In this document: positions 1-1,133 of the stretch, piece after piece | Position numbering within the stretch: the stretch's first letter is position 1 | How the letters are laid out: each line of letters starts with the position of its first letter | DNA from: Escherichia coli | GTDB lineage: Bacteria; Pseudomonadota; Gammaproteobacteria; Enterobacterales; Enterobacteriaceae | Strand: one strand, 5' to 3' | Assembly (NCBI RefSeq): GCF_003334405.1 | Contig: NZ_QOWM01000047.1 | Length of the DNA stretch: 1,133 nt | Notes under the pieces: model-generated | Database searches by the model: none | The model's input: the letters and a program-made list of their open reading frames with translations, nothing else | Told to the model about the DNA's origin: nothing | Position numbers and translations under genes: made by a program

Positions 1-1133
1 AAAAACTGGATCGACAAAGAAGAATATCCGCAATCCGCAGCCATCGACCTGCGTTGCGTAAATATGGTTGCCGATCTGTGGCATGCGCCTGCGCCGAAAA
101 ATGGTCAGGCCGTTGGCACCAACACCATTGGTTCTTCCGAGGCCTGTATGCTCGGCGGGATGGCGATGAAATGGCGTTGGCGCAAGCGTATGGAAGCTGC
201 AGGCAAACCAACGGATAAACCAAACCTGGTGTGCGGTCCGGTACAAATCTGCTGGCATAAATTCGCCCGCTACTGGGATGTGGAGCTGCGTGAGATCCCT
301 ATGCGCCCCGGTCAGTTGTTTATGGACCCGAAACGCATGATTGAAGCCTGTGACGAAAACACCATCGGCGTGGTGCCGACTTTCGGCGTGACCTACACCG
401 GTAACTATGAGTTCCCACAACCGCTGCACGATGCGCTGGATAAATTCCAGGCCGACACCGGTATCGACATCGACATGCACATCGACGCTGCCAGCGGTGG
501 CTTCCTGGCACCGTTCGTCGCCCCGGATATCGTCTGGGACTTCCGCCTGCCGCGTGTGAAATCGATCAGTGCTTCAGGCCATAAATTCGGTCTGGCTCCG
601 CTGGGCTGCGGCTGGGTTATCTGGCGTGACGAAGAAGCGCTGCCGCAGGAACTGGTGTTCAACGTTGACTACCTGGGTGGTCAAATTGGTACTTTTGCCA
701 TCAACTTCTCCCGCCCGGCGGGTCAGGTAATTGCACAGTACTATGAATTCCTGCGCCTCGGTCGTGAAGGCTATACCAAAGTACAGAACGCCTCTTACCA
801 GGTTGCCGCTTATCTGGCGGATGAAATCGCCAAACTGGGGCCGTATGAGTTCATCTGTACGGGTCGCCCGGACGAAGGCATCCCGGCGGTTTGCTTCAAA
901 CTGAAAGATGGTGAAGATCCGGGATACACCCTGTACGACCTCTCTGAACGTCTGCGTCTGCGCGGCTGGCAGGTTCCGGCCTTCACTCTCGGCGGTGAAG
1001 CCACCGACATCGTGGTGATGCGCATTATGTGTCGTCGCGGCTTCGAAATGGACTTTGCTGAACTGTTGCTGGAAGACTACAAAGCCTCCCTGAAATATCT
1101 CAGCGATCACCCGAAACTGCAGGGTATTGCCCA
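1..1133 (+). CDS. gadB: Glutamate decarboxylase (PLP-dependent, group II decarboxylase family), internal fragment truncated at both ends; about residues 82-458 of the 466-aa GadA/GadB protein
   Basis: Frame 1 on the + strand is open across the whole window (377 codons, no stops). The translation matches the E. coli GadA/GadB sequence as I recall it, including the SxSGHK PLP-lysine motif (codons at 568-585), the IDIDMHID segment (463-486) and the C-terminal region [17 protein letters not shown] (1081-1131). Codon usage (CTG, CCG, GGT, CGT, AAA rich) is typical of E. coli. GadA and GadB differ almost only in the N-terminal residues, which are outside this window, so the gadB symbol is a guess between two paralogs. 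Confidence 0.96.
568..585 (+). other. PLP-binding active-site motif S-A-S-G-H-K; the Schiff-base lysine codon AAA is at 583-585 (Lys276 in GadB numbering)
   Basis: Direct translation of 568-585 gives SASGHK. An S-x-x-x-H-K motif carrying the pyridoxal-phosphate lysine is characteristic of group II PLP decarboxylases. The residue number follows from window codon 1 being Lys82. Confidence 0.85.

Follow-up and report, generated by a model that had tools for sequence, protein, structure and literature searches.

The 1,133-nt stretch of Escherichia coli DNA analysed here (the window) breaks off shortly before the end of a glutamate decarboxylase gene. This raises the question of why the sequence ends within the C-terminal tail, which regulates this enzyme, and of what the rest of the tail is likely to be.

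Identity of the gene in the window

Translation showed that frame 1 is free of stops across all 1133 bases, and alignment of the window to ER1709 gadA gave zero mismatches. The window corresponds to nt 244-1376 of the 1401-nt gadA coding sequence (L001 3001-4133, within the CDS at L001 2758-4158). In full-CDS numbering, codon 1 of the window encodes Lys82, and the window runs from K82 to A458 and ends with the "CA" of codon 459. Megablast searches found a match to the window in all 5426 complete E. coli genomes, at a median of two places per genome, and in many of these genomes gadA is 100% identical to the window over its full length. The best 20 matches listed are all annotated as gad or gadA, glutamate decarboxylase. 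The translated fragment scored 597.9 bits against TIGR01788, the NCBIfam equivalog family for glutamate decarboxylase, which is above the curated cut-off of 380.4 bits, and full-length GadA scored 693.4 bits. Among solved structures, the full-length protein is identical to GadA in PDB 1xey (chain 1xey_A, matched over its full length), and it likewise matched the GadB structures 1pmm (chain 1pmm_A), 1pmo, and 2dgk from end to end. The open reading frame, the identity to gadA, and the TIGR01788 match together mark the window (positions 1-1133, plus strand) as an internal gadA/gadB fragment containing codons 82-458 and the first two bases of codon 459. Judged by its sequence, the gene is that of an E. 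coli glutamate decarboxylase, either GadA or GadB.

The comparison with known enzymes was consistent at the level of single residues. Over residues 82-458, including PKLQGIA, the window protein is identical to E. coli GadB (1pmm, 1pmo, 2dgk), and it shows no difference from E. coli GadA (1xey). The PLP-binding lysine motif S-x-H-K is present as SGHKFG, where His275-Lys276 lie at positions 580-585 (plus strand) and Lys276 forms the Schiff base with PLP (PMC12961736). The other residues assigned here by coordinates are also wild-type, as they are in GadB: Asp86 at positions 13-15 and the β-hairpin of residues 300-313, which moves with the tail in the pH switch, at positions 655-696, both with roles taken from PMC12961736, and Glu89 at positions 22-24, whose role in the pH profile was established through an E89Q/Δ452-466 variant (PMC4335662); all three are on the plus strand.

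The opposite strand of the window contains a stop-free open reading frame of 178 amino acids (window 574-1110, minus strand). This reading frame had no NCBIfam match at E ≤ 0.1, and a search of both strands of the window against Rfam at E ≤ 1 gave no match. On these two results we rejected it as a gene, and it is probably a by-product of codon usage on the sense strand.

The start of the C-terminal tail and the pH switch

Positions 1111-1133 of the window read in frame 1 as PKLQGIA followed by two leftover bases (CA). The full protein has 466 residues, with His465 as the penultimate one, and the C-terminus of GadA (WP_000372240.1) is PKLQGIAQQNSFKHT followed by a stop. By translation and full-CDS numbering, the seven residues encoded at positions 1111-1131 (plus strand) are exactly Pro452-Ala458, where the initial annotation had placed them, and they open the 15-residue tail; chance is not at issue because this is a direct reading of the coding sequence. 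Positions 1132-1133 (plus strand) are the first two bases of the codon for Gln459, as given by the alignment and the list of gadA/gadB differences. Eight codons (459-466) and the stop lie beyond the 3′ end of the window, and the annotation was likewise correct in counting the penultimate histidine among the missing residues.

The annotation had also described this segment as the start of a tail that plugs the active site, which agrees with published work on EcGadB. There, the C-tail consists of the last 15 residues, 452-466, which are disordered below pH 5.5 and lock the active site at neutral pH (PMC12961736; PMC4382515). In the locked state, the distal imidazole nitrogen of His465 is covalently bound to C4′ of the Lys276-PLP Schiff base, and the resulting substituted aldamine, which is inactive, absorbs at 340 nm (PMC12961736; PMC4382515). 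The switch between the two states is cooperative and half-complete near pH 5.3, or 5.7 with chloride (PMC12961736; PMC4382515), and conservation of the tail between the GadB proteins of E. coli and Brucella microti is seen at Pro452, Phe463, His465, and Thr466 (PMC4382515). Although GadB was the subject of this structural and kinetic work, the results also apply to GadA, since the two proteins do not differ beyond residue 22. The feature is confirmed as the beginning of the autoinhibitory C-tail of GadA/GadB, a tail whose biology is already known.

For the gene in the window, the published switch would operate as follows. Below about pH 5.5, the tail would have no ordered structure and would leave the active site open. 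With increasing pH, it would fold into the active-site funnel, where the deprotonated imidazole of His465 would attack C4′ of the Lys276-PLP Schiff base and give the inactive substituted aldamine. The enzyme would in this way shut itself off after consuming enough protons.

The further claim that tail integrity governs the pH range of activity holds with a qualification. The tail does contribute, and a Glu89Gln/Δ452-466 variant is active up to pH 7 (PMC4335662). However, Asp86, Glu89, the N-terminal 15 residues, and the 300-313 hairpin also shape the pH range, and His465 variants remain pH-dependent, losing activity between pH 5.5 and 6.5 (PMC12961736; PMC4335662).

Other group II PLP glutamate decarboxylases share the core of the enzyme. 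Plant GAD1 (3hbx) and the lactic-acid-bacterial enzymes (5gp4, 7x4y) belong to the same fold family and have the same catalytic core, with PDB E-values of about 1e-125, but the alignments to these relatives reach no further than query residues 445-459, and the last position of the TIGR01788 profile corresponds to about residue 448. In place of the tail, plant GAD1 has a calmodulin-binding C-terminal extension. From these alignments, the tail from residue 452 on is a lineage-specific appendage outside the shared core, and its integrity must therefore be read directly and not inferred from a family match.

The window ends and the gadA/gadB repeat

We compared the two paralogues to ask why the window ends where it does. 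K-12 gadA and gadB differ at 31 nucleotides, of which 26 lie within nt 1-243; the others are at nt 642, 699, and 1179, all of them synonymous, and at nt 1377 and 1395. The amino-acid differences between GadA and GadB are confined to residues 3, 5, 6, 9, and 22, all upstream of the window, and the proteins are identical from residue 23 onward. Two of the discriminating sites adjoin the window directly: nt 243 (T/C) at its start and nt 1377 (G/A) at its end. The latter is position 3 of codon 459, which is CAG in gadA and CAA in gadB, and is the first discriminating base 3′ of the window. The window most likely ends at position 2 of this codon because the next base differs, being G in gadA and A in gadB.

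A simpler explanation would be that the window is an arbitrary cut of a single-copy gadA whose ends fall at the difference sites by coincidence. The nucleotide identities are in keeping with this idea, since the window matches K-12-type gadA at 1133/1133 bases and the K-12 reference gadB at 1130/1133, differing from the latter at the three synonymous sites (window positions 399, 456, and 936), and the annotations of the best 20 matches listed are all gad or gadA. However, a 1133-nt window can be placed in the gene at 267 positions, and only 1 of them has discriminating sites at both neighbouring bases. Moreover, in NZ_CP097881.1 the exact window occurs in gadA and again in gadB, and the longest stretch that these two genes share without a mismatch is nt 244-1376, which has the same length of 1133 nt. 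The exact window also lies inside gadB in many other genomes: a construct of the window with gadB flanks matched at 100.0% over 1561 nt in at least 40 complete genomes, which implies that gadB in many genomes lacks the three internal differences seen in the K-12 reference and is identical in its DNA to the window. We consider an arbitrary cut very improbable on this evidence.

The same results led us to reject an assignment of the window to gadA over gadB, given that the exact window occurs inside gadB in many genomes and in both genes of one. Instead, we infer from the coordinates alone that the window is most likely a repeat-collapsed contig that represents both gadA and gadB. As the common block of the two genes, the window is not assignable to either paralogue, and two continuations are expected. 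On this reading, the 3′ cut-off is technical, not biological.

The three internal sites vary among K-12-derived sequences. At gene nt 642, 699, and 1179, the MG1655 reference gadB (L003 2146-3546) reads T, and the gadA-type C is found at all three sites in the gadB of several K-12-derived assemblies (three of MG1655, J53, C600, and an O16:H48 isolate). The gadB of the re-sequenced MG1655 NZ_CP097881.1 (L005 561-1961) was compared with the reference gadB. Either true gene conversion between the two genes or an assembly-polishing step that made them uniform could account for C at the three gadB sites.

The tail beyond the window

The initial annotation had predicted that the sequence would continue as QQNSFKHT followed by a stop, and this ending was found in all ten of the related gad copies that were read. 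These copies were ER1709 gadA, MG1655 gadB, gadA and gadB of NZ_CP097881.1, and six more loci, namely gadB of Res13-Lact-PER13-34 and gadA of CFSAN067215 (both among the less identical junction matches), the disrupted gadA genes of TUM10008 and NWU_4, and two gadB copies with 26 and 30 base differences from the window. Phe463, His465, and Thr466, followed by the stop, are present in every one. We also searched with a 128-nt junction query that joined the last 100 bases of the window to the 28 bases through the stop codon. The query was matched in 5426/5426 complete E. coli genomes and at least 80% covered, at an identity of at least 95%, in 5419 of them; the identity at the best place was at least 99% in 5239 records and 95-99% in 192.

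Together, these results indicate that the missing 25 bases are almost certainly the rest of CAR CAG AAC AGC TTT AAA CAY ACC TGA, which would encode QQNSFKHT-stop. Written as a single sequence, the predicted 3′ continuation is almost certainly (G/A)CAGAACAGCTTTAAACA(C/T)ACCTGA, where the tail of the source genome is inferred from other genomes. The two continuations that we expect would encode one peptide: GCAGAACAGCTTTAAACACACCTGATAACATAACG in gadA, leading toward gadX, and ACAGAACAGCTTTAAACATACCTGATAACGTTTAAC in gadB, leading toward gadC.

Further 3′ of the gadA stop in ER1709, outside the window, an inverted repeat (CCGAATGCCCAGC ... GCTGGGCATTCGG) is present at L001 4176-4222, shortly after the double stop TGATAA. 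A terminator scan found a terminator-like site at L001 4202-4219, and the inverted repeat is probably the gadA terminator. At the equivalent place, gadB has a different hairpin.

Several complete genomes carry unusual gad loci. In TUM10008 (NZ_CP135658.1, L007 1258-3435), IS1A is inserted in gadA near window position 37, and the 3′ part of the gene, including the tail, is unchanged despite the insertion. In NWU_4 (NZ_CP123008.1, L006 2501-2584), gadA is reduced to its last 84 nt, which lie directly after yjeJ and before gadX; the remainder of gadA and the genes that normally lie upstream of it were removed by a deletion or rearrangement. Copies of gadB with about 96% identity occur on two large, non-mobilizable replicons labelled as plasmids, CP054253.1 (L010, 252 kb) and NZ_CP141085.1 (L011, 385 kb), of which the second has the chromosomal neighbourhood pqqL-gadB-gadC-digH and the first has part of it. 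Another three "plasmid" gad matches are chromosome-sized records of 4.8-4.9 Mb. These records look more like chromosomal sequence that was mislabelled or split than like mobile gad genes, and the plasmid-labelled gad matches gave no sign of a mobile gad gene with an unusual tail.

The remaining alternative is that the source copy has an altered tail, produced by natural truncation, frameshift, read-through, or fusion, or by engineering (for instance, replacement of His465 or removal of the last residues), which would give activity over a broader pH range. The window does stop before codons 459-466, engineered tail variants have been described (PMC12961736; PMC4335662), and natural disruptions of gad loci occur, if rarely, as illustrated by the IS1A insertion of TUM10008 and the 84-nt 3′ remnant of NWU_4. 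The common engineered form, Δ452-466, is ruled out by the presence of codons 452-458 in the window. Against the other forms, the canonical ending is kept in 10/10 copies, even at the disrupted gadA loci and in the gadB genes with 26-30 differences, and the junction is preserved in 5419/5426 genomes. An altered tail is therefore very unlikely, more so than the arbitrary cut considered above; the chance that the source tail differs from the canonical one is small because the ten copies and the junction matches across 5426 genomes agree. Least probable of all is that the source gad copy, or one of two such copies, has a non-canonical C-terminus, such as one that lacks His465, is truncated, or reads through the stop; if true, this would mean a decarboxylase active near neutral pH in a natural isolate.

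We conclude with high confidence that the window is the central and C-terminal body of the PLP-dependent GadA/GadB with the start of the C-tail, that it is most likely ended by the collapsed gadA/gadB repeat, and that a canonical tail almost certainly lies beyond it. What is new is that each end of the window adjoins a site that discriminates gadA from gadB. The practical lesson is a technical one: the two genes share an exact block of about 1.1 kb that is merged into a single sequence, and calls of the N-terminus, the tail, and the paralogue therefore need flanking sequence or long reads. The tail and His465 of E. coli GadB are a well-characterised case of enzyme autoinhibition, already used for engineering GABA-producing strains.
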